Below, in pieces: positions 1-46,817 of a stretch of DNA of 46,817 nucleotides. This DNA comes from Oscillospiraceae bacterium (lineage in GTDB: Bacteria; Bacillota; Clostridia; Oscillospirales; Acutalibacteraceae): contig JAISWM010000113.1 of assembly GCA_031270785.1 (NCBI GenBank), positions 1 to 46,817 of the forward strand, given 5' to 3'. Numbering within the stretch: position 1 is the first letter of the stretch; each line of letters starts with the position of its first letter. Under the pieces are notes generated by a model. It was not told where the DNA came from, did no database searches, and was given only the letters and a program-made list of their open reading frames with translations. Both the position numbers and the translations under genes were made by a program.

Positions 1-117
1 TATAGCTGTTTCGTTTGAAAAGCGTTTGATTTTTATGACTTTCTCCCAGCCGACGGCTGGGAGAAGGTACATGAATAAATTTACTTTTGAGGACTGTTTT
101 AAATCGTAACAGCTATA
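1..117 (+). mobile_element. MITE family A copy (117 bp)
   Basis: Inverted termini TATAGCTGTTTCG...CGTAACAGCTATA and central hairpin CTCCCAGCCGACGGCTGGGAG. One of 10 near-identical copies in the window. Confidence 0.9.
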
Positions 118-188
118 GTTGATAATATCTTCCCCCACCCGAGGCGGGGGGGAACAAGAAGGGGTTTCAATTATTTTGAAACATGACC
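118..188 (+). mobile_element. MITE family B copy, left end missing (abuts family A copy)
   Basis: TTGATAATATCTTCCCCC-hairpin-GGGGTTTCAATTATTTTGAAACATGACC matches the B consensus. Confidence 0.8.
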
Positions 189-215
189 AAATAAATTGAG
201 GAGTATTTTTTAAAA

Positions 216-629
216 ATGGATGTAATAGAACTTGCAAAACAACTGGGGAAACAGCTTCAGGAAGAAGAAATTTATATAAATTTTAGAGTGCAGCAACAAA
301 ATCTTGAAACCGATAAGGAGCTTCAAAGTAAAATTAATGAATTTAATAATCAAAAAATTAAACTTAATCAAGAAATGTCTAAAGAAGATTTTGACCAGGA
401 ACTAATTAATAATCTAAATGACGATTTGAGAAATCAATATGAAGGCCTTGTGCAGAATGAAAAAATGATTAAATTTAATGAAGACAAACAAAATTTTGAT
501 GGTTTAATTCATAAGATCAACAGTATTATAAATAGAGCGGCGAACGGAGAAGACCCGTTTTTAGAAAATTTTGAAGAAGAAAAGGGCTGCGGCGGCAGCT
601 GCGCCGGCTGCTCGGGTTGCTATAATTAG
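216..629 (+). CDS. YlbF/YmcA-family protein with C-terminal Cys-rich tail
   Basis: 137-aa ORF with a helical Q/E/K/N-rich body and C-terminal GCGGSCAGCSGC, as in clostridial YlbF/YmcA-type proteins. GAGGAG lies ~12 nt upstream of the ATG. Confidence 0.6.
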   Translation: MDVIELAKQLGKQLQEEEIYINFRVQQQNLETDKELQSKINEFNNQKIKLNQEMSKEDFDQELINNLNDDLRNQYEGLVQNEKMIKFNEDKQNFDGLIHKINSIINRAANGEDPFLENFEEEKGCGGSCAGCSGCYN

Positions 630-632
630 TTA

Positions 633-710
633 CCATCGAAAAGTATCTAATTTTTTACTACTTTTTCCCCGCTGTAAGCGGGGAAAGCGCAAAAATAAAA
701 TTTATATATA
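633..710 (-). repeat. Diverged family E-like hairpin element
   Basis: GAAAAGTATCTAATTTTTTACTAC-TTTTCCCCGCTGTAAGCGGGGAAAG-CGCAAAAATAAAATTTATA aligns to the reverse complement of the 105-bp E unit. Confidence 0.5.
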
Positions 711-747
711 AAGTTTTGGTTATTCCCGCTGTGTGGGGGAAAGCGCA

Positions 748-827
748 AAAATTAATTGATAATATTTTTTCCCCCCGCCGATTCGCGGGGGTGAAAGAAA
801 GAATTTCAACTATTTTGAGACACGGCC
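748..827 (+). mobile_element. MITE family B copy (left terminus truncated)
   Basis: AAATTAATTGATAATATTTTTTCCCCCCGCCGATTCGCGGGGGTGAAAGAAAGAATTTCAACTATTTTGAGACACGGCC. Confidence 0.8.
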
Positions 828-905
828 CACGAGCTTGCGGAAAAAGCGCAGAAATAAAATTCATAATTAAGATTTGATGTGTATAGTTAAAAGTGGAGGT
901 AAGTT

Positions 906-3509
906 ATGGCTGAAGCGTCTCCTATGATGAGCCAATATTTAAATATTAAGGAAAAATATCAAGATAGTATCTTGTTCTTCAGACTTGGTGATTTTTATGA
1001 AATGTTCTTTGACGATGCTAAATTAGTGTCTGAAGAACTTGACCTGACTTTAACCGGTAAAGATTATGGCCAAAAAGAAAGGGCGCCTATGTGCGGTATT
1101 CCTTATCATAGTTGTGAGGCATATATTGCAAGGCTTATTGCAAAAGGATATAAAGTTGCAATATGCGACCAAGTTGAAAATCCCGCTCAAACCAAAGGGC
1201 TTGTCAGAAGGGATGTAGTTAGAGTTATCACTCCGGGTACTGTTGTGGAGGACAGTATGCTTGAAGAAGGCAGAAATAATTTTATATGCTGCGTATATAG
1301 TTTGGAAGAATCCGCCGGCATTTGTTTTTGCGACGTATCCACGGGTGAACTTAAAACTACTAGGCTTAGCGGCGATGATGTGCTTATAAAACTTAAAAAT
1401 GAACTTGGCAGGTTTTGCCCCCGAGAAATTATTTTTGGCGGAAACAGTTCGTATTTTGGTCCTATCAAAAAATTTTCTATTGACAGGCTCGGTGTCAAAG
1501 CAGAAGAATTTGAAAAACAAAAATTTGATATTGATACATGCAAAAAATATATTTTAAAATATTTAGATAAAAACAGTATTAAAGGTTTTGAAATTAACGA
1601 TTACATCGAGGTTGTAAAAGCTGTTGGCGCGCTTATTTCGTATATTGAATATACTCAAAAAAAAGGCGTTGAAAGACTGCACAATATTGAGTTTTACAGC
1701 CAAAACCAATATATGGGATTAGGCCTTAATACAATGAGAAATCTTGAAATAGTAGAAACCATGAGAAATAAAGAAAAAAGAGGTTCTCTCCTTTGGGTTC
1801 TTGACAAAACTAAAACCGCTATGGGCAAGCGTTTGCTAAGGAGTTGGCTTGAAAGGCCGCTTGTCAGGTACGAAGAAATATTAAAAAGGCAAGAAGGAGT
1901 AGAAGAGCTTTTTTCTGATATTATTTTTAGAGAATCTTTATCGGAAGTTATGGCAAAGGTTAGAGATATCGGCAGATTGATGACAAGAATTATGTATGGT
2001 TTCGCCGCGGGCAGAGAGTTTAAGGCCCTTTCTAGCACTATATCTAATTTGCCGAAAATTAAAAAAGCTTTATCTAAAGCGGAATCTACTATTCTTAAAG
2101 ACATTTACGGGAATATTGATGAACTTCAAGACGTATTCCAAATTATTGAAGAATCCATCACAGAAAATCCTCCCGCTACTTTTAAAGAGGGCGGCATCAT
2201 AAAGGATGGTTACAGCGAGGAGGTTGACAGCTTTCGCAAAAACATGAACGGCGGCAAAGATATAATATTAAATGTTGAACGCGAAGAACGCAAAAAAACA
2301 GGTATCCCCAAACTTAAAGTAGGGTACAATAAAGTTTTCGGGTACTACATAGAAGTAACTAATTCATATAAGCATCTTGCGCCTGAATATTACATAAGAA
2401 AGCAAACTTTAGCAAACTGCGAACGATATATTACAAAAGAACTTAAAGATTTGGAAATACGTATTCTTGGAGCTAAAGATAAACTTAAAGAAATAGAATA
2501 TTCTATTTTTGAAGAAATAAGGCTTAAAGTTGCGGGGCAAATTAAACGTATTGAAAGAACTTCCGCTATGTTGGCTGTTCTTGACGTGCTTTTGTCTTTG
2601 GCTACGGTTGCCGCCAAAAATAATTATATTAAACCTATAATAAGCCGCGAAAAAAATATCATAATCAAAGAAAGCAGGCACCCTGTCGTTGAAGTATTAT
2701 TAGATGGCGCTCCTTTCGTGCCCAATAATGCCGCGCTTGATAACAGTGATCATACTGTCGCTGTTATTACAGGGCCTAATATGGCCGGTAAATCTACGTA
2801 TATGAGGCAAATTGCTTTAATTGTTCTTATGGCTCAAATAGGCAGTTTCGTCCCGGCGGGGCAAGCTGAAATCGGAATAGTCGATAATATTTTTACCCGT
2901 ATTGGCGCTTCGGACGATTTAACTTCCGGCCAATCTACTTTTATGGTAGAAATGAATGAAGTAGCCCACATTGTAAACAACGCCACGAAAGACAGTTTAC
3001 TGATTTTTGACGAAATCGGGCGCGGAACCTCCACTTTTGACGGTATGAGTATTGCAAGAGCCGTACTTGAATACGTGGCTGATAAAAATAAGCTTGGGGC
3101 TAAAACTCTTTTTGCTACCCATTACCATGAATTAACTTCCATGAGTGAATTTTTCCCCAATGTAAAAAATTATAATGTCGCCGTTAAAAAAAACGGTGAT
3201 GATATTATATTTTTAAGAAGAATTGTGCCAGGCGGCACAGATGATAGTTATGGCATAGAAGTTGCCAAACTTTCCGGCATTCCGGATTGGATTATTAATA
3301 GGGCTAAAAAAATTTTAAATGATATAGAAAAAAACAAAACCGATGATATACAGCATGTTCATAGTGAAAATATTAATGCAGTTCCTTCTGATTTTAGTGA
3401 TGAAATTACCCGCGTTGCTAATAAACTTAAAAATTTAGACGTTAGCGTTCTTACGCCGATAGAGTCTATGAATATACTGTTTGATTTAGTTAAATTAGTT
3501 AACAATTAG
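906..3509 (+). CDS. mutS: DNA mismatch repair protein MutS
   Basis: 867 aa. N-terminal SPMMSQYLNIKEKY, Walker A GPNMAGKSTYMRQ, STFMVEM and LIFDEIGRGTSTFDG motifs. GGAGG lies 6 nt upstream of the ATG. Confidence 0.97.
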   Translation: MAEASPMMSQYLNIKEKYQDSILFFRLGDFYEMFFDDAKLVSEELDLTLTGKDYGQKERAPMCGIPYHSCEAYIARLIAKGYKVAICDQVENPAQTKGLVRRDVVRVITPGTVVEDSMLEEGRNNFICCVYSLEESAGICFCDVSTGELKTTRLSGDDVLIKLKNELGRFCPREIIFGGNSSYFGPIKKFSIDRLGVKAEEFEKQKFDIDTCKKYILKYLDKNSIKGFEINDYIEVVKAVGALISYIEYTQKKGVERLHNIEFYSQNQYMGLGLNTMRNLEIVETMRNKEKRGSLLWVLDKTKTAMGKRLLRSWLERPLVRYEEILKRQEGVEELFSDIIFRESLSEVMAKVRDIGRLMTRIMYGFAAGREFKALSSTISNLPKIKKALSKAESTILKDIYGNIDELQDVFQIIEESITENPPATFKEGGIIKDGYSEEVDSFRKNMNGGKDIILNVEREERKKTGIPKLKVGYNKVFGYYIEVTNSYKHLAPEYYIRKQTLANCERYITKELKDLEIRILGAKDKLKEIEYSIFEEIRLKVAGQIKRIERTSAMLAVLDVLLSLATVAAKNNYIKPIISREKNIIIKESRHPVVEVLLDGAPFVPNNAALDNSDHTVAVITGPNMAGKSTYMRQIALIVLMAQIGSFVPAGQAEIGIVDNIFTRIGASDDLTSGQSTFMVEMNEVAHIVNNATKDSLLIFDEIGRGTSTFDGMSIARAVLEYVADKNKLGAKTLFATHYHELTSMSEFFPNVKNYNVAVKKNGDDIIFLRRIVPGGTDDSYGIEVAKLSGIPDWIINRAKKILNDIEKNKTDDIQHVHSENINAVPSDFSDEITRVANKLKNLDVSVLTPIESMNILFDLVKLVNN

Positions 3510-3534
3510 GTTGTGGATCAAATTAATTGATAAT

Positions 3535-3773
3535 AGACCTGTCCGTAAATCTCACAGAGCGCAAACTATCGAAAAATGCGTCACTTAAAAAATGGCTTTG
3601 CATCAAAATTTCCCGGGAAGTATCTTCATATGCCGTCGTCGATTTGGTAGTGGTCCAAATTAATTGATAATATCTTCCCCCCCCGCCATAGGCGGGGGGA
3701 AAAAGAAAAAATTTCAACTATTTTGGGACATGACCCAGATTTTAATTGCAATCTGTAAAATTTACGGACAGGT
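3535..3773 (+). mobile_element. MITE family C copy interrupted by a family B copy
   Basis: Termini AGACCTGTCCGTAAAT...ATTTACGGACAGGT. The C body is 3535-3645 plus 3737-3773. Confidence 0.8.
3646..3735 (+). mobile_element. MITE family B copy nested inside C
   Basis: GGTAGTGGTCCAAATTAATTGATAATATC...CAACTATTTTGGGACATGACC. Confidence 0.85.
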
Positions 3774-3856
3774 ATAATATCTTCCCCCCGCCATAGGCGG
3801 GGGGAAAGAAGGGATTTCAACTATTTTGAGACATGACCCAGATTTTAATTTAGAAA

Positions 3857-3973
3857 TATAGCTGTTTCGTTTGAAAAGTGTCTGATTTTTATAATTTTCT
3901 CCCGGCCGACGGCGGGGAGAAAGTACACGGATAAATTTACTTTTGAGAACTGTTTTAAATCGTAACAGCTATA
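3857..3973 (+). mobile_element. MITE family A copy
   Basis: TATAGCTGTTTCG...CGTAACAGCTATA, 117 bp. Confidence 0.9.
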
Positions 3974-3985
3974 GTTTAAACTTCT

Positions 3986-4026
3986 GCGGGGGAAAAAACA
4001 ACAATGCCACTGTTTCAAAAGGTTTG
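3986..4026 (+). repeat. Family D right-arm fragment
   Basis: GCGGGGGAAAAAACAACAATGCCACTGTTTCAAAAGGTTT matches the D right arm GGGGAAACAAAAATGTCACTGTTTCAAAAGGTTTTT. Confidence 0.55.
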
Positions 4027-4117
4027 GTGGATGGTGCCAATTAGTTGATAATATCTTCCCCCCCGCCATAGGCGGGGGGGAGAAAGAAGGGATTTCAACT
4101 ATTTTGGGACATGCCCC
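4026..4117 (+). mobile_element. MITE family B copy
   Basis: GGTGGATGGTGCCAATTAGTTGATAATATCTTCCCCCCCGCCATAGGCGGGGGGG...CAACTATTTTGGGACATGCCCC. The left boundary is uncertain by ~8 nt. Confidence 0.75.
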
Positions 4118-4156
4118 AGATTTTAATTGCAATCTGTAAAATTTACGGACAGGTCT
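4118..4156 (+). repeat. Family C right-end fragment
   Basis: AGATTTTAATTGCAATCTGTAAAATTTACGGACAGGTCT. Confidence 0.8.
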
Positions 4157-4219
4157 AATATCTCCCCCCCCACCATAGGCGGGGGGGAAGAAGGGATTTC
4201 AACTATTTTGGGACATGGC
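4157..4219 (+). mobile_element. MITE family B, right two-thirds
   Basis: AATATCTCCCCCCCCACCATAGGCGGGGGGGAAGAAGGGATTTCAACTATTTTGGGACATGGC. Confidence 0.75.
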
Positions 4220-4245
4220 AAACAATTAAGTTGGAGCTTAAATTT

Positions 4246-6085: not shown

Positions 6086-7042
6086 TTGAAATCAGATAAA
6101 ATACCTGTTATTTGTGTAGTAGGGCCTACTGCTTCCGGCAAGACGGACTTAGCCGTAAATATTGCAAAAAAAATGAGCGGCGAAATAATTTCGGCTGATT
6201 CTATGCAGATATATAAGGAATTTAATATATCAACCGCTAAACCGACTTTAAAACAGATGTGTGGCATCAAACATCATTGCATTGATATTGTTTCTGTTAA
6301 AGAAAATTTTAGTGTGGCAAAATATGTTAGTTTTGCCGAAAAAATTATAAAAGATATTTTTTCAATAGGTAAAATACCGATACTTTGCGGCGGAACCGGA
6401 TTATATATTGATTCTCTTATAAAAAATATACCTTTCGAGAAAGGGAAAACAAATATTTCGATAAGAAATAGAATTATTAATTATATAAATGTGAATAATG
6501 CGGGATATTTTTTTGATAAACTAAAAAAAATTGACCCTAGTAGCGCAAAAAAAATAAATATTCACGACCATAAAAGGATTTGCAGAGCTATAGAATTTTA
6601 TTATACAAATGGCTATCCGATATATAGGCAAGTTGAAAACTCTTTAAAATCCAAATCGTGCTATAATGTGTGCAAAATAGGGCTTAATTTTAAAGACCGC
6701 AATATACTTTATGATAGAATAAATAAGAGAGTGGATTTCATGGTTAAAAATGGTATTTTAGATGAAATTGCTTCGATTAAAGATATAGGGGATACAGCTA
6801 AATTTTCTATAGGATATAAAGAGCTATTGCCTTTTATTAACGCCGAAAGCTCTTTAAAAGAGTGCACAGAAAGACTTAAAATGGAAACCAGGAGATACGC
6901 TAAACGCCAAATCACTTGGTTTAAAAGAGACCTTAGCACTAAGTGGTTTAACGCGGATGAATATGAAAATGTTTCTAACCTGTTTTGCAATGTTCAAAAG
7001 TGCATTTTAGATAGTGGAATTTTAGGTCATGTCTCAAAATAG
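6086..7042 (+). CDS. miaA: tRNA dimethylallyltransferase MiaA
   Basis: P-loop VVGPTASGKT and GGTGLY motif, with a TTG start. The last six codons including the stop (GGTCATGTCTCAAAATAG) are the terminus of a family B element. Confidence 0.9.
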   Translation: MKSDKIPVICVVGPTASGKTDLAVNIAKKMSGEIISADSMQIYKEFNISTAKPTLKQMCGIKHHCIDIVSVKENFSVAKYVSFAEKIIKDIFSIGKIPILCGGTGLYIDSLIKNIPFEKGKTNISIRNRIINYINVNNAGYFFDKLKKIDPSSAKKINIHDHKRICRAIEFYYTNGYPIYRQVENSLKSKSCYNVCKIGLNFKDRNILYDRINKRVDFMVKNGILDEIASIKDIGDTAKFSIGYKELLPFINAESSLKECTERLKMETRRYAKRQITWFKRDLSTKWFNADEYENVSNLFCNVQKCILDSGILGHVSK

Positions 7043-7095
7043 TTGAAATCCCTTCTTTCACCCCCGCTGCAGGCTGGGAAAAGATATTACAAACC
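7025..7095 (-). mobile_element. MITE family B copy (truncated at the C junction), overlapping the miaA 3-prime end
   Basis: GGTCATGTCTCAAAATAGTTGAAATCCCTTCTTTCACCCCCGCTGCAGGCTGGGAAAAGATATTAC. Confidence 0.8.
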
Positions 7096-7339
7096 AGACC
7101 TGTCCGTAAATCTCACAGATCGCAAACTATCGAAAAAATGCATCACTTAAAAAATGGCTTTGCATCAAAATCTCCCGGGAAGTATCTTCATACGCCGTCG
7201 TCGATTTGGTAGTAGTCCAAATTAATTGATAAAATATCTTTCACCCCCGACTATGGCGGGGGTGAAAGAAGGGATTTCAACTATTTTATGGCGCGACCGT
7301 CGATTTTGATTGCAATCTGTAAAATTTACGAACAGGTCT
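7096..7339 (+). mobile_element. MITE family C copy carrying a nested B
   Basis: AGACCTGTCCGTAAATCTCACAG...TTTACGAACAGGTCT. The body is interrupted at 7208-7298. Confidence 0.85.
7208..7298 (+). mobile_element. MITE family B copy nested in C, with target-site duplication
   Basis: GGTAGTAGTCCAAATT...TTTTATGGCGCGACC, flanked by GTCGATTT at 7200-7207 and 7299-7306. The intact C copy at 33605 has a single GTCGATTT. Confidence 0.9.
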
Positions 7340-37065: not shown

Positions 37066-37083
37066 CGCCGTGCCATCAATACA

Positions 37084-37962: not shown

Positions 37963-37972
37963 ATTGTTTATT

Positions 37973-38117: not shown

Positions 38118-38177
38118 AATAGGGACTTTAAAATTCGAGGCTTTAATTATGTTCAGCATATATATACTCTCAAAAAG

Positions 38178-39561: not shown

Positions 39562-39586
39562 ATATGCTCCCCCAATAAAATATATA

Positions 39587-39703
39587 TATAGCTGTTACGA
39601 TTTAAAATAGCCCTCAAAAGTAAATTTATCCGTGTACTTTCTCCCAGCAGACGGCTGGGAGAAAGTTATAAAAATCAGACGCTTTTCAAACGGAACAGCT
39701 ATA
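39587..39703 (-). mobile_element. MITE family A copy (reverse)
   Basis: TATAGCTGTTACGATTTAAAATAG...CAAACGGAACAGCTATA. Confidence 0.9.
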
Positions 39704-39710
39704 GTATAAA

Positions 39711-39810
39711 TATAGCCAAAACCATTTAAAAACGCGATATTATTTATGCTCCCCCCCGCCACCGGCGGGGGGGAAACAAAAATGTCACTGTTTCAAAAGG
39801 TTTTTACTAT
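39711..39810 (+). mobile_element. Family D element
   Basis: TATAGCCAAAACCATTTAAAAACGCGATATTATTTATGCTCCCCCCCGCCACCGGCGGGGGGGAAACAAAAATGTCACTGTTTCAAAAGGTTTTTACTAT. Confidence 0.8.
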
Positions 39811-39822
39811 GGTATAATATAG

Positions 39823-39927
39823 TATAGTCGCTACATTTGAAAAAAGTAAATTTGTTCATACGGTCTCGTTCTGCCAGGTGGAGAGAGTGGCAAAAAATTA
39901 AACTTTTTTTTACGGGCATTAGCTATA
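39823..39927 (+). mobile_element. Family E element, solitary 105-bp copy (diverged hairpin)
   Basis: TATAGTCGCTACATTTGAAAAAAGTAAATTTGTTCATACGGTCTCG...TTTTACGGGCATTAGCTATA. Confidence 0.75.
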
Positions 39928-39986
39928 ATAAGGTGATGAAACTAAGCCACACCGTCTGCTGATAGTATGGGGCTATTAAAAAAATT

Positions 39987-40078
39987 GGCCATGTTTCAAA
40001 ATAATTGAAATCCTTTCTTTATTCCCCCCGCCATGGGCGGGGGGAAAAGAATATTATCAATTAATTTGGGCCACCACC
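39987..40078 (-). mobile_element. MITE family B copy with 8-9 bp TSD
   Basis: GGCCATGTTTCAAAATAATTGAAATCC...ATCAATTAATTTGGGCCACCACC, flanked by AAAAAAATT at 39978-39986 and 40079-40087. Confidence 0.85.
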
Positions 40079-40141
40079 AAAAAAATTTAAGAAAGGAAAT
40101 ATAATGAACCCCCCACTTTTTCATTATACAAGGTGAAAAAT

Positions 40142-40474
40142 ATGAGAATAGGAATTATGGGATCAGAAAATTTAAATATATCAGTAGATAAATTCGTTCC
40201 CCAATACGCATCTTATATATTAACCATAGACGGCGAAGGTATAAATAAAAATGTGGAGCAGTACGCTCGTGAACATAATCTCCCCATAAACATTTTTAAA
40301 CCTGACTTTCAAAAATTCGGTCAAAATGCTGAGCTTATAAGAAACAAACATTTATCAGTACAATCCGAAATGATTATTATAGTATGGGACGGAAAGTCTG
40401 AAATGCTCAGGGCTACCATAGAATACGCCAAAAATATAAGAAAACGCTTAAAAGTATTTTTAATAAAAAATTAG
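40142..40474 (+). CDS. Small SLOG/DUF2493-like protein (tentative)
   Basis: 110 aa from the ATG at 40142, 5 nt after AGGTGA. The pattern MRIGIMGS...IDGEGINK..EQYAREHNLPINIFKPDF.KFG.NAELIRNK...WDGKS resembles DUF2493-type SLOG proteins. Pattern match only. Confidence 0.4.
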   Translation: MRIGIMGSENLNISVDKFVPQYASYILTIDGEGINKNVEQYAREHNLPINIFKPDFQKFGQNAELIRNKHLSVQSEMIIIVWDGKSEMLRATIEYAKNIRKRLKVFLIKN

Positions 40475-40488
40475 AAAGGATAACAAAG

Positions 40489-41058
40489 ATGTGCAATACC
40501 TGGGCAAATCTTGAACGAGACTGCTTAACATGCAAAAAATGCTCGCTTTGTGAAACAAGGACTAACGTTGTTTTTGGAGAAGGCAATATTAATTCCAAAG
40601 TTATGCTTATAGGAGAAGGGCCAGGAAAAGAGGAAGATCTTCAAGGCAGGCCTTTTGTCGGCCGATCAGGAAAATTGCTTGATAAAATGCTTGAAAAAGT
40701 TGGCCTTAGCAGACAAAAAAACATATATATAGCCAATATAGTAAAATGCAGACCTCCTCAAAACAGAGATCCTTTGCCCGGTGAACAAAATGAATGCATG
40801 AATTGGTTAAGAAGCCAATTTACAATAATTAATCCCAAAATAATCGTAGCGCTTGGAAGAATAGCCGCTGCGCGCGTGATAAAACCAGATTTAAAAATAA
40901 CAAAGGAACACGGGATCATCTATAAGAAAAAAGATATTTTTATGATGGCTGTATTTCATCCGGCGGCATTATTAAGGGATCAGTCAAAAATAAGTTTTGC
41001 AGAACAAGATTTTGCTAAACTTAAGCACTTAATTGATAAAAATATATCGTATAGCTAA
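40489..41058 (+). CDS. Uracil-DNA glycosylase, family 4
   Basis: N-terminal Cys cluster CLTCKKCSLC, GEGPGKEEDLQGRPFVGRSGKLL and HPAALLR motifs. The last two codons plus the stop (TATAGCTAA) coincide with an E-type element terminus. Confidence 0.9.
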   Translation: MCNTWANLERDCLTCKKCSLCETRTNVVFGEGNINSKVMLIGEGPGKEEDLQGRPFVGRSGKLLDKMLEKVGLSRQKNIYIANIVKCRPPQNRDPLPGEQNECMNWLRSQFTIINPKIIVALGRIAAARVIKPDLKITKEHGIIYKKKDIFMMAVFHPAALLRDQSKISFAEQDFAKLKHLIDKNISYS

Positions 41059-41100
41059 TACCCTTGAAAAATATCTAATTTTTTACTACCACTCTCTCCG
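41050..41100 (-). repeat. Family E half element (reverse) overlapping the UDG stop codon
   Basis: TATAGCTAATACCCTTGAAAAATATCTAATTTTTTACTACCACTCTCTCC matches the reverse complement of the E right arm. Confidence 0.65.
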
Positions 41101-41107
41101 CAAATTC

Positions 41108-41309
41108 GGCCATGTCTCAAAATATAGCTGTTATGATTTAAAACAGTCCTCAAAAGTAAATTTATCCGTGTACTTTCTCCCAGCCGTCGGCTGGGAGAAA
41201 GTTATAGAAATTAGACGCTTTTCAAACGAAACAGCTATAGTTGAAATTCCTTCTTCCCCCCCGCCTACGGCGGGGGGGAAGATATTATCAATTAATTTGG
41301 ACCACTACC
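41108..41309 (-). mobile_element. MITE family B copy split by a family A insertion at its internal TA
   Basis: GGCCATGTCTCAAAATA (41108-41124), then A, then TAGTTGAAATTCCTTCTTCCCCCCCGCCTACGGCGGGGGGGAAGATATTATCAATTAATTTGGACCACTACC (41238-41309). Confidence 0.88.
41123..41239 (-). mobile_element. MITE family A copy nested in B with a TA duplication
   Basis: TA at 41123-41124 and 41238-41239 flanks the core TAGCTGTTATG...AACAGCTA. The B consensus has a single TA at this position (CAAAATAGTTG). Confidence 0.9.
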
Positions 41310-41368
41310 CCGATTTGAGGGGGAGGAGAAAAAAGACGTTTTAACCACTTTAAGGCATAGCAAAAATT

Positions 41369-42274
41369 TCATTGTGCACTGTGTGCACTGACGATAACGG
41401 CTTCAATTAAATTAAGTAAATCATTTATATTATTTACATTCCCAGCATGTGCGGCTTCAAGTGCGGCTTCAAATGCGTCTGCATGTGCTTTGCATTGTGT
41501 GGGGCTACGTTCATTCATTATTATAAACCAATATGCGTATGACGCTGACCATATTTTACTATGCGGTTGGGTTACCGCAGTTACATATGCAGTCGCATAT
41601 ACGTGTGCACTATTAGTCACATTGTATGCCCTATCAGCCGCATCGTCTGCACTATCAGTCGCATCGTGTGCACTATCAATCGCAAGTACATGCTTCATTA
41701 TGGGTACATACACTTCTGCATATAAGCTTGATTCCAGACGACTATGTCCCGCTGTTTTCCTGTCTGCATATACAATTGCAATTTCGTCTGCCATCTTTGG
41801 AAACAGCCCTTCAAATATCATTTGTTCATATTTGTATGCATAGGCATAGGCTTCAGTATTTCCGCTTGCTTCCACAACCTCATACGTGTTAGCAAACATG
41901 ATTGCTCTTGCAACAGGAAATCCTAATGCTATCAAGTCTGCAAATATCTCTGCCAACAAAGGGTTTTTCCCATTTGCTATTGCCTCCCCATATATGCGTT
42001 GATATGTTTCTGCATAGTTGTTCGCAATGTCTGTTGCCTCCGCTTCCGTTTTCCCTCTCATCATTGCGGTCATGAATACGTCTGTATAGATTTCCGCATC
42101 TTTTCGGCTAGCTCCTGCGCGTTCCCTGTCATAACATACAAGCTGCCATTGAGGAATACATCTAAAAACACTATCTCTGAGATCAGTATCTCCAAGTGCT
42201 GAAACTCCAAAAATGGACAAACTACTAAACAATACGGCACAACTAATAAAAACTTTTGACTTATTCTTTTTCAT
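41369..42274 (-). CDS. Hypothetical secreted protein, Ala/Tyr-rich helical repeats
   Basis: 301 aa. Signal peptide is MKKNKSKVFISCAVLFSSLSIFGVSALG. Loose A-x-x-Y-A type repeats occur (NYAETYQRIYGEA, AYAYAYKYEQ, AHVYATAYVTA). AGGAG lies 7 nt upstream. G+C-richer than its neighbours. Confidence 0.65.
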   Translation of the reverse strand: MKKNKSKVFISCAVLFSSLSIFGVSALGDTDLRDSVFRCIPQWQLVCYDRERAGASRKDAEIYTDVFMTAMMRGKTEAEATDIANNYAETYQRIYGEAIANGKNPLLAEIFADLIALGFPVARAIMFANTYEVVEASGNTEAYAYAYKYEQMIFEGLFPKMADEIAIVYADRKTAGHSRLESSLYAEVYVPIMKHVLAIDSAHDATDSADDAADRAYNVTNSAHVYATAYVTAVTQPHSKIWSASYAYWFIIMNERSPTQCKAHADAFEAALEAAHAGNVNNINDLLNLIEAVIVSAHSAQ

Positions 42275-42315
42275 AATTTTTCTCCTTAATTTAATTTATA
42301 ATCAATTGCTGTATC

Positions 42316-42344
42316 ATAATAACACTAAATTAATGAAATGTCGA
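42316..42344 (-). promoter_or_regulatory. Candidate promoter of the 41369-42274 gene (duplicated at ~42487-42515)
   Basis: On the minus strand: TCGACA (42344-42339), a 17-nt spacer, then TGtTATTAT (-10 at 42321-42316). Confidence 0.4.
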
Positions 42345-42400
42345 TATATTTTTTTGAAAATGAATATGATTTATTCAATGTGCTTTTTCGACCTTTACAC

Positions 42401-42482
42401 AAAATTCGAGGCAGTTTCGATAATGTTCCCCCCCGCCATAGGCGGGGGGAAAAGATATTATCAACTAATTTGACCCACTACC
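42401..42482 (-). mobile_element. Family B-prime variant (B left arm and hairpin, alternative second arm AAAATTCGAGGCAGTTTCGATAATGTT)
   Basis: AAAATTCGAGGCAGTTTCGATAATGTTCCCCCCCGCCATAGGCGGGGGGAAAAGATATTATCAACTAATTTGACCCACTACC. Confidence 0.75.
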
Positions 42483-42572
42483 GCATCATAATAACACTAA
42501 ATTAATGAAATGTCGATATATTTTTTTGAAAATTAATATGATTTGTTTAGTGTGCTTTTTCGGCCTTTACAC

Positions 42573-42655
42573 AAAATTCGAGGCAGTCTCGATAATGTTC
42601 CCCCCCCGCCATAGGCGGGGGGAAAAGATATTATCAATTAATTTGGACTACTACC
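42573..42655 (-). mobile_element. Family B-prime variant copy
   Basis: Near-identical to 42401-42482. Confidence 0.75.
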
Positions 42656-42735
42656 AAAATTTGAGGCAATCTCGATAATGTTCCCCCCAGCCATAGGTGG
42701 GGGGAGATATTATCAACCAATTTGACCCACTATCC
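42656..42735 (-). mobile_element. Family B-prime variant copy
   Basis: AAAATTTGAGGCAATCTCGATAATGTTCCCCCCAGCCATAGGTGGGGGGAGATATTATCAACCAATTTGACCCACTATCC. Confidence 0.7.
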
Positions 42736-42810
42736 ACGTTTTTAAATGGTTTTGGCTATATATTTGAAAATGAATATAATTTATTTAATGTGCTTTTTCG
42801 ACCTTTACAC

Positions 42811-42893
42811 AAAATTCGGGGCAGTCTCGATAATGTTTCCCCCCCGCCATAGGCGTGGGGAAAAGATATTATCAATTAATTTGGACTACTACC
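42811..42893 (-). mobile_element. Family B-prime variant copy
   Basis: AAAATTCGGGGCAGTCTCGATAATGTTTCCCCCCCGCCATAGGCGTGGGGAAAAGATATTATCAATTAATTTGGACTACTACC. Confidence 0.75.
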
Positions 42894-42975
42894 AAAATTC
42901 GGGGCAGTTTCGATAATGTTCCCCCCGCAAGTCGGCGTGAAAAAAAATATTATCAACCAATTTGGCCCACTATCC
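42894..42975 (-). mobile_element. Family B-prime variant copy (degenerate hairpin)
   Basis: AAAATTCGGGGCAGTTTCGATAATGTTCCCCCCGCAAGTCGGCGTGAAAAAAAATATTATCAACCAATTTGGCCCACTATCC. Confidence 0.65.
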
Positions 42976-43070
42976 ACGTTTTTAAATGGTTTTGGCTATA
43001 TACACGACGGCTAAAATTCTCTCGTGTGTAATATATCGTAAAAAAAAAATATTAATTTTTAAAAAAACAG

Positions 43071-43100
43071 TTGACAAAAGATATTCTGCCATATTATAAT
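43071..43100 (+). promoter_or_regulatory. Promoter of the stand-alone 5S rRNA gene
   Basis: TTGACA (43071-43076), an 18-nt spacer, then TATAAT (43095-43100). An A/T-rich UP-like tract lies at 43041-43068. Confidence 0.7.
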
Positions 43101-43106
43101 GAAAAT

Positions 43107-43228
43107 CGAGTTAGTGTTAATGATATTGAGGGTACACCTGTTCCCATCTCGAACACAGAAGTTAAGCTCAATGATGCTGAAAATACTGGGCTGGCAGCAG
43201 CCTTGGAAAATAGGGAAATGCTAACTCT
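43107..43228 (+). rRNA. rrf: 5S ribosomal RNA (not linked to 16S/23S in this window)
   Basis: Universal loop C/helix III segment CACCTGTTCCCATCTCGAACACAGAAGTTAAGC. Helix I is GAGTTAGT/GCTAACTC, helix II ATTGAG/CTCAAT, helix IV GGGCTG-GCAG-CAGCCT. About 120 nt. Confidence 0.85.
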
Positions 43229-43231
43229 TAT

Positions 43232-43259
43232 AGCAATCATTTTTGTGGTTGCTTTTTTT
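43232..43259 (+). terminator. Rho-independent terminator after 5S
   Basis: Stem AGCAATCA (43232-43239) pairs with TGGTTGCT (43246-43253), followed by TTTTTT. Confidence 0.7.
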
Positions 43260-43272
43260 GTGTGCAAATTCC

Positions 43273-43380
43273 GGTGGTGATCCAAATTAATTGATAATAG
43301 ACCTGTCCGTAAATCTCACAGAGCGCAAACTGTCGAAAAATGTATCACTTAAAAAATGGCTTTGCATCAAAATCTCCTTG
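43273..43380 (+). repeat. B left end (43273-43298) followed by the left part of C (43299-43380)
   Basis: GGTGGTGATCCAAATTAATTGATAAT then AGACCTGTCCGTAAATCTCACAGAGCGCAAACTGTCG...CATCAAAATCTCCTTG. This is the same B/C junction as at 3534/3535. Confidence 0.75.
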
Positions 43381-43473
43381 TGTCTCAAAATAATTTAAAT
43401 TTCTTCTTCCCCCCCGCCTTCGGGGAAAAAAGAAACGTAAATAATACCACGTTTCTAAATGATTTTAGCTATA
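43381..43473. repeat. Chimeric element: B right arm (reverse) joined to a D left arm at a half hairpin
   Basis: TGTCTCAAAATAATTTAAATTTCTTCTTCCCCCCCGCCTTCGG, then GGAAAAAAGAAACGTAAATAATACCACGTTTCTAAATGATTTTAGCTATA. Confidence 0.65.
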
Positions 43474-43639
43474 TCTACAATTTTTGAAAGTTCTATATAT
43501 CTTTTAACAAAACAATCTATTGACACTTAACACATGTGAGTAATAAAATATGCTGTGTGGGAATAAAAAATTTATCTTAAATTTTGAATATAATATCCGA
43601 GATCCACGAAATTTAAAAGTTTTAAAACCATGATGTTTT

Positions 43640-43729
43640 GGTAGTGGTTCAAATTGATGGATAATATCTTCCCCCCCCGCCTATGGCGGGGGGGAAAAGA
43701 AGGGATTTCAACTATTTTGACCCACAACC
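43640..43729 (+). mobile_element. MITE family B copy, full length, with 8-bp TSD
   Basis: GGTAGTGGTTCAAATTGATGGATAATATC...CAACTATTTTGACCCACAACC, flanked by GATGTTTT at 43632-43639 and 43730-43737. Confidence 0.92.
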
Positions 43730-43845
43730 GATGTTTTTGGGTTTGGGGAATACTTGATATACAGCAAATTTTGCAAAAATATCAAAAAAATATAGTTTTT
43801 TATTAAATTTTTTAAGATTTTAAGTCATTAAATATTTATACTCAG

Positions 43846-43954
43846 TATAGTGGTTTAACTTAAAAAGTATAAACTCTTGTAGCACTTTCCCCCGCGAGCC
43901 TGCCGGGGGAAGCGGACGTAAATGAGTGTGCTTTTTTTCAGTGAAACAGCTGTA
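43846..43954 (-). mobile_element. Family I element, uninterrupted 109-bp copy
   Basis: TATAGTGGTTTAACTTAAAAAGTATAAACTCTTGTAGCACTTTCCCCCGCGAGCCTGCCGGGGGAAGCGGACGTAAATGAGTGTGCTTTTTTTCAGTGAAACAGCTGTA. It serves as the empty-site paralog of 27859-28063. Confidence 0.8.
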
Positions 43955-43991
43955 ATTAAGCCGTTTACGAGCTTTTTTCGCCAAGCTCGGG

Positions 43992-44083
43992 GGTAGAGTG
44001 GGCCAAATTAATTGATAATATCTTTCCACCCCGCCTATGGCGGAGGGAAAAGGAAGGAATTTCAACTATTTTATGGCGCGACC
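43992..44083 (+). mobile_element. MITE family B copy
   Basis: GGTAGAGTGGGCCAAATTAATTGATAATATC...CAACTATTTTATGGCGCGACC. Flanks share GCTCGGG at 43985-43991 and 44085-44091. Confidence 0.85.
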
Positions 44084-44179
44084 GGCTCGGGTTATAAAAT
44101 TAAGATTTTAAAAATCTATCTTAAATATAATAATAAATTTACATACCTCCCCAAAATTATAAAGGGGGCTCAAATCTGT

Positions 44180-45721
44180 TTGGAGCTAATAATTTTAGTT
44201 ATCGTTTTAATAATATGCTTGCCACTTGCGTTTATATCGGGAATAGCATACAGAAAAAATAAATCTGAAAAAATTATACTGTCGGCTGAATATGAGGCTG
44301 AAAGAATAATGAAAAATTCTAAAGAGCTTGCGGAAACCAGAAAAAAAGAGATCATAATCGTAGGAAATGAGGAAGTACATAAGTTTAGAACAGAAACCGA
44401 AAAAGAACTTTATGAACGCAGAAAAGATCTTCTGCAACAAGAAAAACGCATTCAGCAAAAGGAAGAAGCCTTAGACAAAAAATCTTTTCAATTTGAAAAA
44501 AAAGAAGAACAAATTCAAAGTAAACTTAAAAATATTGATGAAAAAAAACTGGAAATTGATAACCTCAAAAAAACACAATTTGATATTTTAGAAAAAATTT
44601 CGGGTTTTTCCACAAAACAAGCTAAATTTTATATTATTGAAAGTCTTCAAGACGAGCTTGCTCACGAAAAAGCAGTGAAAGTGCTTCAGTATGAACAAGA
44701 ACTTAAGGAAAGTTGCGAAAAAAAAGCAAAAGAAATTTTGGCCACCGCAATACAAAGATGTGCGTCAGATCATTCCTCCACAGTTATGATATCAGTCGTT
44801 CCTCTGCCAAATGATGAAATGAAAGGAAGAATTATCGGCAGAGAAGGAAGAAATATCAGGTCTATTGAAAATTTAACAGGTGTTGATTTAATAATAGACG
44901 ATACTCCGGAATCAATTACGTTATCGTCGTTTGACCCGGTTAGAAGGGAAATCGCCAGGATTACTCTTGAAAGATTAATCGCCGATGGCAGAATTCACCC
45001 CGCCAACATAGAAGAAACTGTTAAAAAGGTAAAAATAGACATAAACAAAGAAATGAAAGAAGAAGGCGAAAAAGCAGTACTCGAAACCAGAATAAATCAC
45101 ATTCACCCTGAACTTGTTAAACTCATAGGCAGGCTTAAATACAGGACAAGTTATGGTCAAAACATCTTAAATCATTCACTGGAAGTTGCACATTTGTGCG
45201 GAATAATGGCATCCGAATTGGGCTTGAACGCAACGCTTGCCAGGAGGTGCGGTCTTCTTCATGATATTGGCAAAGCTTTGGACCATGAAATAGAAGGCTC
45301 TCACACGGAGATTGGGGTAGACGTAGCTAAAAAGTATAAAGAAAGCGATGCAGTTATACACGCCATTCACGCTCACCACGGCGATATTGAACCTCAAACC
45401 GAAATCGCTCTTATTTTGCAAGCGGCAGATGCAATATCCGCGGCACGACCCGGTGCAAGGCGCGAAAACTTAGAAACATATATTAAAAGACTAGAAAAAC
45501 TTGAAACACTTGCTTCATCATTTGACGGCGTAGAAAAGTGTTTTGCCATCCAAGCCGGAAGAGAAATCAGGGTAATGATTAAACCGGATATCGTAAATGA
45601 CGAAAAAATGATATTTTTGGCAAGAAACATCTGCAAAAAAATTGAGACGGATCTGGATTACCCGGGGCAAGTTAAAGTAAACATTATAAGAGAAACGAGA
45701 ATAGTAGAATACGCCAAGTAA
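44180..45721 (+). CDS. rny: Ribonuclease Y
   Basis: N-terminal TM helix, coiled coil, KH motif [15 protein letters not shown], and HD domain HSLEVAHL...[12 protein letters not shown] at 44180 after AAAGGGGG is the likely start. The tracked ORF start at 44012 lies inside a B element. Confidence 0.92.
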
Positions 45722-45769
45722 AATATGGTTGCGGCCCAAATATTCTTTTTTCCCCCCGCCTTTTTTTGG

Positions 45770-45863
45770 GGTTGTGGGTCAAATTAATTGATAATATCTC
45801 TTCCCCCCCCCGCCGAAGGCGGGGGGAGAAAGAAAGAATTTAAACTTATTTTGAGACATAACC
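45770..45863 (+). mobile_element. MITE family B copy nested in another B, with 8-bp TSD
   Basis: GGTTGTGGGTCAAATTAATTGATAATATC...AAACTTATTTTGAGACATAACC, flanked by TTTTTTGG at 45762-45769 and 45864-45871. Confidence 0.88.
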
Positions 45864-45896
45864 TTTTTTGGGGGGAAAAAAGAAAAAATTTTCAAC

Positions 45897-46013
45897 TATA
45901 GCTGTTTTGTTTGAAAAGCGTCTGATTTCTATAACTTTCTCCCAGCCGACGGCTGGGAGAAAGTACACGAATAAATTTACTTTTGAGAACTGTTTTAAAT
46001 CGTAACAGCTATA
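45897..46013 (+). mobile_element. MITE family A copy nested in B with a TA duplication
   Basis: TTTTCAAC-TA, then TAGCTGTTTTG...AACAGCTA, then TA-TTTTGGGACACGCCCC. The B consensus reads CAACTATTTTG with one TA. Confidence 0.9.
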
Positions 46014-46027
46014 TTTTGGGACACGCC

Positions 46028-46067
46028 CCGATTTTGATTGCAATCTGTAAAGTTTACGGACGGGTCT
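46028..46067 (+). repeat. Family C right-end fragment
   Basis: CGATTTTGATTGCAATCTGTAAAGTTTACGGACGGGTCT. Confidence 0.75.
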
Positions 46068-46088: not shown

Positions 46089-46177
46089 GGTTGTGGGCCA
46101 AATTAATTGATAATATCCCTCCCCCGCCTTCGGCGGGGGGGAGAAAGAAAGAATTTAAACTATTTTGAGACACGACC
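46089..46177 (+). mobile_element. MITE family B copy (second unit of a ~330-bp composite duplication)
   Basis: GGTTGTGGGCCAAATTAATTGATAATATCCCTCCCCCGCCTTCGGCGGGGGGG...AAACTATTTTGAGACACGACC. Confidence 0.85.
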
Positions 46178-46210
46178 TTTTTTTGGGGGAAAAAAGAAAA
46201 AATTTTCAGC

Positions 46211-46327
46211 TATAGCTGTTTTGTTTGAAAAGCGTCTGATTTTTATAACTTTCTCCCAACCGACGGCCGGGAGAAAGTACACGGATAAATTTACTTTTGA
46301 GGACTGTTTTAAATCGTAACAGCTATA
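46211..46327 (+). mobile_element. MITE family A copy
   Basis: TATAGCTGTTTTGTTTGAAAAGCG...CGTAACAGCTATA. Confidence 0.9.
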
Positions 46328-46408
46328 TAAAAGTAGATATTTAAATTCATAGATATGTATGATATAATATTTTAGACATTAATTAATTAATAAAAGGAGG
46401 CGGCGATT

Positions 46409-46546
46409 TTGAAGCATTTTGTGACTATTGCCGAAGGCAATCAGCAAAAAGACATTAAAAAAATAGGTTGCGGAGAATGCCAGGCGTCTTGCCAGTCGGC
46501 ATGTAAAACTTCTTGCACAGTAGCAAACCAAAAATGCGAAAAATAG
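46409..46546 (+). CDS. scfA: SCIFF ranthipeptide precursor (six cysteines in forty-five residues)
   Basis: Not in the ORF track because it is under 60 aa. A TTG start lies ~8 nt after AAGGAGG. The 45 codons read (M)KHFVTIAEGNQQKDIKKIGCGECQASCQSACKTSCTVANQKCEK, matching the conserved GCGECQxSCQSACKTSCTVxNQxCE core. Confidence 0.9.
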   Translation: MKHFVTIAEGNQQKDIKKIGCGECQASCQSACKTSCTVANQKCEK

Positions 46547-46635
46547 GTCATGTCTCAAAATAATTGAAATCCCTTCTTTCACCCCCGTGTTTCAGTGGTG
46601 GGAGAAGATATTATCAATTAATTTGGACCACAACC
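46546..46635 (-). mobile_element. MITE family B copy starting at the last base of the SCIFF stop codon
   Basis: GGTCATGTCTCAAAATAATTGAAATCCC...ATCAATTAATTTGGACCACAACC. Confidence 0.88.
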
Positions 46636-46641
46636 GAAAAA

Positions 46642-46730
46642 GGTTATGTTTCAAAATAATTGAAACTTTTTCTTTTTCACCCCGCCGTCGGCGGGGTGAA
46701 AGATATTATCAGCTAATTTGACCCACAACC
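46642..46730 (-). mobile_element. MITE family B copy (second of three in tandem)
   Basis: GGTTATGTTTCAAAATAATTGAAACTTTTTCTTTTTCACCCCGCCGTCGGCGGGGTGAAAGATATTATCAGCTAATTTGACCCACAACC. Confidence 0.88.
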
Positions 46731-46737
46731 GAAAAAT

Positions 46738-46817
46738 GGTTATGCCTCAAAATAATTGAAATCCCTTCTTTCACCCCCGCGTTCTAGTGGTGGGGGAAGA
46801 TATTATCAACTAATTTG
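46738..46817 (-). mobile_element. MITE family B copy (third in tandem, runs off the window)
   Basis: GGTTATGCCTCAAAATAATTGAAATCCCTTCTTTCACCCCCGCGTTCTAGTGGTGGGGGAAGATATTATCAACTAATTTG. Confidence 0.85.

Follow-up and report, generated by a model that had tools for sequence, protein, structure and literature searches.

The 46,817-nt stretch analysed here, called the window throughout, is a complete metagenomic contig with a G+C content of ~36%, in which short repeated elements, the subject of this analysis, occupy much of the intergenic DNA. Its housekeeping genes encode YlbF, MutS, MutL, MiaA, an HlyD-type protein, Def and Pth. The window also carries a tRNA-Pro gene, genes for an amino-acid ABC transporter, an AbrB/MazE-like protein, MurA, an AAA ATPase, Ppk, RluD, LspA, a uracil-DNA glycosylase and RNase Y, a lone 5S rRNA gene and a gene for a SCIFF peptide. 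The closest named relative of the MutL protein belongs to 'Candidatus Paraimprobicoccus trichonymphae' (57% identity), followed by proteins of Ruminococcus and of Clostridia metagenome-assembled genomes (MAGs; ~49%), and because of these matches the host is taken to be an uncultured member of the Clostridia. The Paraimprobicoccus clade consists of low-GC intracellular endosymbionts of protists (PMC10579323; bioRxiv 10.1101/2025.07.29.667580).

Non-coding DNA, delimited with a gene map of open reading frames (ORFs) and family matches, accounts for 11,556 of the 46,817 nt (24.7-24.9%). Self-BLASTN assigns 7,381 of these 11,556 nt (64%) to repeats, against 284 of 35,261 coding nt (0.8%). About 80 element copies or pieces are present in 46.8 kb; they measure 74-143 nt, make up ~16% of the window's DNA and are overlapped by no ORF with family matches. 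At least one element lies in 21 of the 22 gaps longer than 60 nt, and the sole element-free gap (29460-29526) is occupied by a native terminator-like hairpin and the T run after it. Gene lengths are as in relatives (e.g. MutS, 867 amino acids (aa); HlyD, 410 aa). A preliminary description of the window, drawn from its letters, had held that about a quarter of it (here 24.7%) is non-coding, that the bulk of this is repeat DNA, that nearly every gap above ~60 bp contains an element and that the interspersed housekeeping genes are intact; all four statements stand. It had also reported no transposase gene, and neither Pfam nor NCBIfam detects one in any sizeable ORF of the window. Among the small ORFs of the non-repeat spacers, inspected by eye only and without a family-library scan, no plausible transposase remnant was seen. 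The exact MutS sequence of the window matched no deposited record, probably owing to a different start-codon call.

[quoted passage not shown] They are short, non-coding, multicopy and intergenic, they have terminal inverted repeats (TIRs; 29-35 nt in families A, C, E and X, imperfect 30-nt arms in family B), and they are associated with target duplications and an empty site. The six or more families first proposed reduce to three groups when sorted by end sequence and target duplication: family B, a TAGC superfamily and family X. Counts agree closely for A (ten full copies and one divergent copy, against 11) and B (~38 pieces including five short-arm variants, against ~35), and the two-copy family I is found as described, at 27974-28063 and 43846-43937. 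C is represented by ~10 pieces (against 8) and E by the six tandem units at 27076-27702 and several E-like fragments (against ~11); the former family D (~12 copies) probably corresponds to X, for which 8 pieces were found.

Family B elements are 87-94 nt long with imperfect 30-nt arms, GGTTGTGGTCCAAATTAATTGATAATATC and GGTCATGTCTCAAAATAGTTGAAATCC, and their alignment gives the consensus GGTnGTGGnnCAAATTAATTGATAATATCTTT-CCCCCCGCC-nATG-GCGGGGGG-GAAAGAAGGAATTTCAACTATTTTGAGACATGACC. Eighteen full copies share a mean pairwise identity of 71%, and halves, split copies and the five short-arm variants add to them. Variation is greater in the hairpin and the tips than in the inner arms, TTGATAATAT and TTTCAAC-TATTTTG, which hardly vary. 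Family B makes an 8-nt target duplication: the flanking 8 nt are identical in 7 of the 18 copies and match at seven or more positions in 8 of the 18, a level reached by 1.6% of mismatched flank pairs. Copies and pieces of B are as follows, with others entered under the nested structures below.

118-190 (+), B, left arm truncated by an A insertion
738-827 (+), B
3774-3838 (+), partial B (seed positions 22-87)
4027-4116 (+), B
7025-7089 (-), partial B, b1 arm disrupted
7208-7298 (+), B nested in X, perfect 8-nt duplication GTCGATTT
8754-8840 (+), B with decayed hairpin, duplication AAAATATC
10192-10279 (+), B, duplication AATGATTC
11741-11829 (-), B, 9-nt duplication GGCAATATA on the plus strand (TATATTGCC in element orientation)
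14319-14412 (+), B, duplication CAGGAATT
26375-26463 (+), B with decayed hairpin
26478-26568 (+), B
27882-27971 (-), B, duplication ATTTTTCA
30578-30639 (+), half B (hairpin and b2 arm)
37011-37065 (+), half B (hairpin and b2-like arm)
39987-40078 (-), B
43640-43729 (+), B, duplication GATGTTTT
43994-44083 (+), B, just upstream of, or overlapping, the annotated RNase Y start
45722-45863 (+), truncated B (45722-45769), then a full B (45770-45863) with duplication TTTTTTGG
46089-46177 (+), B
46546-46817 (-), three B copies in a row (46546-46635, 46642-46730 and 46742-46817, with the contig end truncating the last), the first of them directly following the SCIFF gene

At 11741-11829, a B element is situated 8 nt upstream of the tRNA-Pro(CGG) gene's 5' end, and its duplication overlaps the first base of the tRNA (11656-11829). 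The promoter of the tRNA gene must therefore lie inside or beyond the B element.

Families A, C and E make up the TAGC superfamily together with the two-copy family and, at 11099-11241, a divergent copy. Its members are 97-143 nt long and share ends of ~35 nt with the form TAGC-N5-6-C-NN-TTNAAAA. Family A, with the 113-nt consensus TAGCTGTTTCGTTTGAAAAGCGTCTGATTTTTATGACTTTCTCCCAGCCGACGGCTGGGAGAAAGTACACGGATAAATTTACTTTTGAGGACTGTTTTAAATCGTAACAGCTA, is represented by ten copies with a mean pairwise identity of 92%, and TA flanks ten of ten left ends and nine of ten right ends. Three A insertions are nested in B arms of known sequence, where a single TA has been turned into two each time: at 41125-41237 and 45899-46011 the arm reads TTTCAAC-TA-[TAGC...GCTA]-TA-TTTTGAGACA, and at 3-115 a TA stands after the element, before GTTGATAAT. 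The A copy at 9064-9175 sits in the terminal TA of a C element, with the junction ACTA/TAGC and the predicted TATA after A. TA target duplication is thereby demonstrated for A; for C, the clean ends of which are mostly TA-flanked, the flanks are consistent with it only. The intact length of C is 97 nt (39713-39809) and the E unit is ~104 nt. The superfamily is distributed as follows.

3-115 (+), A, 113 nt, TA-flanked, cutting the b1 arm of the B at 118-190
638-702 (strand not assigned), E-like fragments, hairpin CCCCGCTGTAAGCGGGG
3859-3971 (+), A
3986-4025 (+), C right-arm fragment
7344-7456 (+), A
8892-9063 (+), two C units (8892-8955, partial, and 8964-9063)
9064-9175 (+), A, in the terminal TA of the preceding C
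10039-10151 (-), A
11099-11241 (+), divergent A-like element, TAGCTGTTCCGC...GCGGAACAGCTA
14673-14773 (+), C
14979-15060 (-), C
26299-26374 (-), partial C
27076-27702 (+), E array, six head-to-tail units of 103-105 nt
27974-28063 (-), two-copy family, 78% identity to 43846-43937
33257-33369 (+), A
33372-33459 (-), C
34694-34748 (strand not assigned), C-like half element, 10-bp perfect hairpin (12 pairs with one mismatch allowed)
39589-39701 (-), A
39713-39809 (+), C, intact, 97 nt
39834-39925 (+), E-like single copy, 74% identity to the E seed
43846-43937 (+), two-copy family

Family X is 141 nt long and has 29-nt inverted ends that start with GACCTGTCCGTAAAT (GACCTGTCCGTAAATCTCACAGAGCGCA...TTGCAATCTGTAAAATTTACGGACAGGTC). 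It contains no G/C palindrome core, so the earlier statement that all families share one architecture, an A/T-rich arm on either side of a G/C-rich palindrome, fails for this family. Its eight pieces comprise two intact copies, two copies split by nested B elements and four fragments, with identities, taken together with A, of 92-94%. Family X duplicates a 5-nt TAATA-like site, as shown at one nested site: around the X at 3536-3773 the B arm reconstructs as TTGA-TAATA-TCTTCC, i.e. with a 5-nt duplication. The two intact copies are flanked by TAATA/TAATC and TATTA/TAATA, with four of five positions matching at both. Intact copies and fragments lie at the following positions.

9998-10035 (+), X right-end fragment
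33606-33746 (+), X, intact, 141 nt, flanks TAATA and TAATC
37974-38116 (-), X, intact
43300-43380 (+), X, left 81 nt
46029-46066 (+), X right-end fragment

The elements have landed inside one another systematically. The 721-nt MutS-MutL spacer consists of one B element whose b1 arm has been opened at TAATA by a 620-nt block, which is bounded by X ends and contains B, A and C pieces. Landing sites recur: A prefers CAAC-TA-TTTTG in one B arm, X prefers TAATA in the other B arm and B prefers CGATTT in X. The nested insertions give a relative chronology in which B is old (71% identity) and A and X are recent (92-94%). Nested and chimeric structures are listed below.

3509-3535 (+), outer B, left 27 nt, at the mutS stop codon, duplication AACAATTA, remainder at 4156-4219
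3536-3773 (+), X split by a nested B (X parts 3536-3645 and 3738-3773), at TAATA of the B arm
3646-3735 (+), B nested in X
4119-4155 (+), X right end, closing the 620-nt composite within the outer B
4156-4219 (+), outer B remainder, then the second copy of AACAATTA
7097-7338 (+), X split by the nested B at 7208-7298
9902-9998 (+), chimera of C arm, hairpin and B b2 arm
33485-33583 (+), chimera of E-like TAGC arm, hairpin and B b2 arm
41108-41309 (-), B split by the nested A at 41125-41237, with the TA duplication reconstructed as TTTCAAC-TA-[A]-TA-TTTTGAGACA
42313-42972 (+), higher-order repeat region, ~106-nt unit at 42313-42418 and 42485-42590, third partial unit (72 nt) at 42757-42828
42410-42482, 42582-42655, 42665-42732, 42820-42893 and 42903-42972 (+), five short-arm B variants interleaved in 42313-42972
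43273-43299 (+), B left arm, interrupted by X; the TAATA site is the one used at 3535/3536
43381-43471 (-), chimera of B b2 arm, hairpin and C arm
45865-46028 (+), B b2 arm split by the nested A at 45899-46011, with TA duplicated at the arm position also hit at 41125
46178-46325 (+), b2-arm fragment and A (46213-46325), within a 314-nt segmental duplicate of 45802-46014

Syntenic comparison, which the preliminary description had called for, places the insertions in time. The relatives L068 (GCA_964416045.1) and L069 encode MutL proteins 75% identical to that of the window, and L086, obtained from ENA, stands at the same distance. The order YlbF-MutS-MutL-MiaA-HlyD is kept in L068 and L069 with spacers of 20, 17, 4 and 13 nt, and non-coding DNA makes up 5.1-5.4% in these two relatives. 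A seed search detected no element copies in L068, L069, L086, the Paraimprobicoccus locus L085 or L087 (apart from one chance-level 25-nt match in L069), and G/C hairpins are likewise absent from all five, against 37 in the window. At the MutS-MutL junction, L068 and L069 retain the empty site, with a single TTAGTTAAtAATTAAGTTGG; the window and L070 each have a B element at this point, bracketed by two copies of AACAATTA. As a result of the insertion, mutS now stops at a hybrid TAG, with TA from the target and G from the element tip (window 3507-3509), in place of the ancestral TAA (L068 9982-9984), and MutS is still 867 aa long.

Two contigs of another sample (JGI sample 3300042605), L070 and L088, carry the same families. 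In L070, at 96% nucleotide identity to the window, the MutS-MutL spacer is a single 87-nt B, against 721 nt in the window, and the MiaA-HlyD spacer measures 84 nt, against 381 nt. The murA gene of L088 has 87.5% nucleotide identity; this contig has a G+C content of 36.4% and carries copies of A (94% to the seed), of B and of C; one C follows the murA terminator, at a site where the window has none. L087, with a murA gene of 82% nucleotide identity and a G+C content of 31%, has no elements. The element share in L070 and L088 is roughly 4-6%, an estimate from element lengths on short contigs, which tend to end at repeats. Because they are absent from the relatives and polymorphic in L070 and L088, the families appear to be confined to a narrow lineage, to have arisen after its split from these relatives and to have been active recently. 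The preliminary description had left open whether the elements are mobilised in trans or are relics. Such small non-coding mobile elements must be mobilised in trans, and A and X are unlikely to be relics, given their identities of 92-94% and their polymorphism relative to a strain of 96% identity.

A G/C hairpin forms the core of families B, A, C and E. The family A hairpin CTCCCAGCCGACGGCTGGGAG occurs at nine loci with three or fewer mismatches and at none in shuffled sequence. The literal 30-mer given earlier as typical, TCTTCCCCCCGCC-N4-GGCGGGGGGAAGA, has only two matches because the lengths of the C and G runs vary (5 to 10, differing by copy); the looser pattern CCCCGC-N3-8-GCGGGG has 31, against none in 100 shuffles. 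Whole elements of B, A, C and E fold from end to end, each as one hairpin (z-scores of -4.8 to -6.3), and X also folds from end to end. Of 27 perfect G/C stems, 26 have the pyrimidine-first order of C run, loop and G run, e.g. 3679-3699, 39750-39774 and 41252-41282, and the opposite polarity, GGGGCG...CGCCCC, has no match in the window. The core is nearly the same in B and C despite their different ends and duplications, and the chimeras join at the hairpin.

Under the favoured explanation, the elements would retain only their terminal inverted repeats and be moved by transposases encoded elsewhere in the genome, with at least three transposase specificities at work, one each for the TAGC superfamily, B and X. 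TA target duplication is typical of the IS630/Tc1-mariner family, and because of this duplication the TAGC superfamily would be served by an enzyme of that type. Family B may have been moved by an IS6-like transposase, possibly of the long Clostridial type, a tentative assignment whose chances fall somewhat short of even. It is suggested by the 8-nt duplications and by tips that partly fit the IS6/IS26 TIR consensus GGTTCTGTTGCAAA: b2 (GGTCATGTCTCAAA) matches at 10 of 14 positions and b1 (GGTTGTGGTCCAAA) at 11 of 14, with the invariant G1, G2 and G7 and the CAAA block present in each. Members of the IS6/IS26 family make 8-bp target duplications (PMC6807381, PMC7986276), and the IR of IS1216 has been compared as an IS6-family end (PMC2920175). 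The arms of each family would supply short A/T-rich motifs preferred by the others, so insertions would gather into nested clusters within gene-free DNA, which tolerates them, and the intergenic fraction would have grown from ~5% to ~25% since the split from the relatives. The G/C hairpin might spread between families by recombination or template switching at the palindrome.

Several observations weigh against this explanation or parts of it. About half of the B copies have no clean duplication, the B tips lack G10, which is usually present in the IS6/IS26 consensus, and in the b1 arm TGG replaces the conserved TGT. The main route of IS6 movement is regarded as cointegrate formation, so that many simple insertions are not an obvious outcome. 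The bases of IS6-type tips also occur in the TIRs of other families (PMC6807381). In the TAGC superfamily, the right end of the intact C at 39713-39809 is followed by TG, and the six E units abut as GCTA/TAGC without a TA between them, with one TA at each end of the array. The E array at 27076-27702 is more readily accounted for by in-situ tandem amplification than by six independent insertions. Transposition by itself does not explain why the hairpins are almost exclusively pyrimidine-first. No autonomous partner came to light and no transposase is encoded in ~58 kb of lineage DNA (the window, L070 and L088), so the transposase-family assignments draw only on duplication length and end motifs.

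Elements of this kind could instead be host regulatory modules, such as terminators, mRNA 3' stabilisers or small RNAs, duplicated for their usefulness and mobile only secondarily. The very stable predicted RNA folds and the uniform hairpin polarity speak for this alternative, as do two apparently compensatory pair changes at one stem position of the A hairpin, which is mostly A:T and is G:C at 9103 (9103-9123) and C:G in L088 (4790-4810). Quasi-palindrome correction during replication can mimic compensatory change, and the stem variants may be either; the B hairpins offer no reliable alignment for covariation, given their variable C and G run lengths. Sigma-70-like promoter matches are also enriched at 26100-46000 (108, against 67.8 +/- 7.6 in shuffles), several of them within B arms (TTGGTA-16-GATAAT) and the ~106-nt unit repeated at 42313-42590. 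An intrinsic or SPRITE-like terminator was considered and rejected: 17 terminator-like sites were counted against 17.5 expected, only one element hairpin is flagged, and the element stems are followed by purine-rich AAAGAAGG or AAGATATT. The element hairpins are not terminators because they have no T run and such sites are not enriched. Moreover, relatives express the syntenic genes with spacers of 13-20 nt and no elements, several hairpins have decayed without compensation, the elements occur alike in convergent, divergent and tandem gaps, and Rfam gives them no match at E <= 0.1. A primarily regulatory origin is accordingly improbable.

Still less probable is that the hairpins themselves are the real units, REP/BIME-like and spread by a Y1 (RAYT, IS200/IS605-like) transposase, the A/T arms being incidental. 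The G/C palindromes (17-31 nt) are strictly intergenic, clustered and as numerous as the pattern search indicates, half elements at 30578-30639 and 37011-37065 consist of the hairpin and one arm, and the same hairpin core is joined to different arms. Yet complete elements carry TIRs and duplications of 8, 2 or 5 nt, which REPs do not produce; the inner arms are better conserved than the hairpin; family X behaves alike without a hairpin; and the window contains no RAYT/Y1 transposase gene. The target duplications largely refute this alternative. That the repeats are an assembly artefact or mark a chimeric contig is barely credible: the window is metagenomic and repeats are a common source of misassembly, but the copies have diverged (mean pairwise identity 92% in A, 71% in B), their junctions show consistent target duplications, gene order outside the elements matches relatives across MutS-HlyD, and the same families recur on the two independent contigs from the other sample.

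Searches for known relatives of the MITEs returned little. Rfam, which the preliminary description had proposed to search, matched only the 5S rRNA and the tRNA, both at gathering scores and at E <= 0.1. With 3510-4230 as BLASTN query, nothing above chance came from PLSDB plasmids, from INPHARED phages or from the full set of complete E. coli genomes, in which ERIC and REP are present, and the two B arms likewise gave nothing above chance in plasmids. IMG/VR scans with a B arm, the A hairpin and an X end found nothing real, and the JGI contig collection, scanned with the two-arm B pattern only, yielded 10 chance matches in A/T-rich DNA and no true copy.

A genome-collection scan with the short pattern TTTCAAYTATTTTGRGACA gave, among the matches listed, an unrelated IS1202-group IS at the ends of gut Lachnospiraceae MAG contigs, along with chance matches. 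This IS (ISNCY_2, E 1e-127) of gut Lachnospiraceae and Oscillospiraceae is found at L033 1146-2830, at L032 ~1728-3513 and at many MAG contig ends (L002-L067); it is present in high copy, interrupts the assembly of many MAGs and carries repeats of the motif TGTCCCAAA(A/G)TA at each end. Its right end in L033 carries TTTCAATTATTTTGGGACA, which lies beside a G/C hairpin and is identical to the B b2 arm at 17 of 19 positions, and its TIR core TTTTTGATAATGTCC resembles the b1 arm. In a scan of 596 Gb, chance alone should produce a 19-mer match, and the shared motif lies 19 nt from the IS tip, against 5 nt from the B tip. IS1202-group elements fall into duplication classes of 5-6, 15-17 and 24-29 nt. 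As the parent of B this IS was rejected, since it makes a duplication of ~26 nt (L032), against 8 nt in B.

Among named systems, the TAGC superfamily most resembles RUP, which is linked to IS630-Spn1, and the Correia elements of Neisseria: all are non-coding, ~100-150 nt long and able to fold as whole-element hairpins, with long TIRs and a TA duplication, and all are intergenic, multicopy and mobilised in trans. The elements here differ in their central pyrimidine-first G/C palindrome, in the six-unit array of one subfamily and in a far higher density. They show no detectable similarity in the libraries searched (Rfam, plasmids, phages and E. coli), a comparison that did not include ISfinder, Dfam or, directly, the BOX, RUP and Correia consensus sequences. 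Pneumococcal BOX, RUP and SPRITE also cluster and insert into each other (PMC10969869).

Family B shares with IS6/IS26 and the MITEs MITEBth2 and MITEHarch3 the 8-bp duplication, the GG tip, G7 and CAAA at positions 11-14. The long Clostridial IS6-like elements ISCbo1, ISCpe7, ISTps1 and ISTet2 also lack G10 and have longer TIRs and 8-bp duplications (PMC6807381), and the host here is likewise of a Clostridia lineage. In contrast, catalogued IS6-family MITEs measure 227 and 336 bp (PMC7986276), against 87-94 nt for B, and B has TGG for TGT in one arm and occurs as dozens of simple insertions, where cointegrates are the presumed route of IS6 members. The REP/BIME sequences of proteobacteria are likewise G/C-rich extragenic palindromes, clustered, abundant and intergenic only, but they are linked to RAYT Y1 transposases and lack the TIRs and target duplications seen here. 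Rickettsia palindromic elements and Wolbachia MITEs are similar in being bursts of small palindromic repeats in low-GC genomes, with a link to host restriction through the clade of the nearest named relative; Rickettsia palindromic elements often lie inside genes, whereas coding DNA is spared here (0.8%).

A census of 183,232 genomes found a maximum of 123 MITEs per Mb and 1.23% of the genome (PMC11602168), against ~1,700 pieces per Mb and ~16% here, figures obtained by different methods and from a single 47-kb window that may be atypical. A review notes that nothing like the MITE load of plants (8-10% of the genome) has been seen in prokaryotes (PMC10969869). The elements are new MITE families of a well-known kind, and what is unusual is their density, their nesting and the hairpin core common to families. 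The earlier proposal of an undescribed system was thus overstated as to kind, as nested MITEs are familiar; it holds for the families, the density and the cross-family core, which are new.

MITE bursts are usually studied in plants. A lineage with ~16% MITE DNA in 47 kb offers a natural system for the tolerance and reshaping of a compact bacterial genome by non-autonomous transposons, and the relatives with 5% non-coding DNA make a before-and-after comparison available. The nested insertions give target-site rules for three transposase types, and an IS6 derivation of B, if true, would inform the debate over how the IS26 family, which is clinically important, transposes. A broader proposal, unlikely as it stands, is that the lineage holds the densest prokaryotic MITE load (>10% of the genome, against a maximum of ~1.2%), that B is an IS6/IS26-type MITE making simple 8-nt insertions, contrary to the cointegrate-only view, that unrelated superfamilies have exchanged or converged on one hairpin core, and that this core serves mobilisation or the host. 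Given the symbiont clade of the nearest named relative, the burst may mark early host restriction.

Other features of the window deserve mention. A minus-strand ORF of 3,701 aa at 15063-26168 has no Pfam domain and contains an internal repeat (18844-18913 and 18949-19026). The 46-aa plus-strand ORF at 46406-46545 encodes a six-cysteine ranthipeptide precursor of the SCIFF type (TIGR03973, 73 bits against a cut-off of 50). Its stop codon is followed directly by three B elements, at the usual place of the radical-SAM maturase gene, and the contig ends before any such gene. The lone 5S rRNA gene (43110-43226, +) has no 23S rRNA nearby and MITE clusters on both sides; a perfect TTGACA-18-TATAAT promoter of its own stands at 43071-43100, and a terminator-like hairpin plus T run at 43232-43260.

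The LspA-RluD-Ppk block (window 34789-39561; L068 18336-21812) is inverted and relocated relative to relatives, in which it follows HlyD-SepF-DivIVA-IleRS. RluD and Ppk are separated by an extra 292-aa ORF without a family match (37084-37962), with an X element on one side of it and a half B on the other, and the breakpoints of the rearrangement fall within MITE clusters. Base composition also differs. Coding G+C is 36.3% in the window, against ~30% in the relatives L068, L069 and L087 (~80% shared nucleotide identity), and non-coding G+C is 36.5%, against 21% in the relatives; the MITE-bearing contig L088 is also at 36%.

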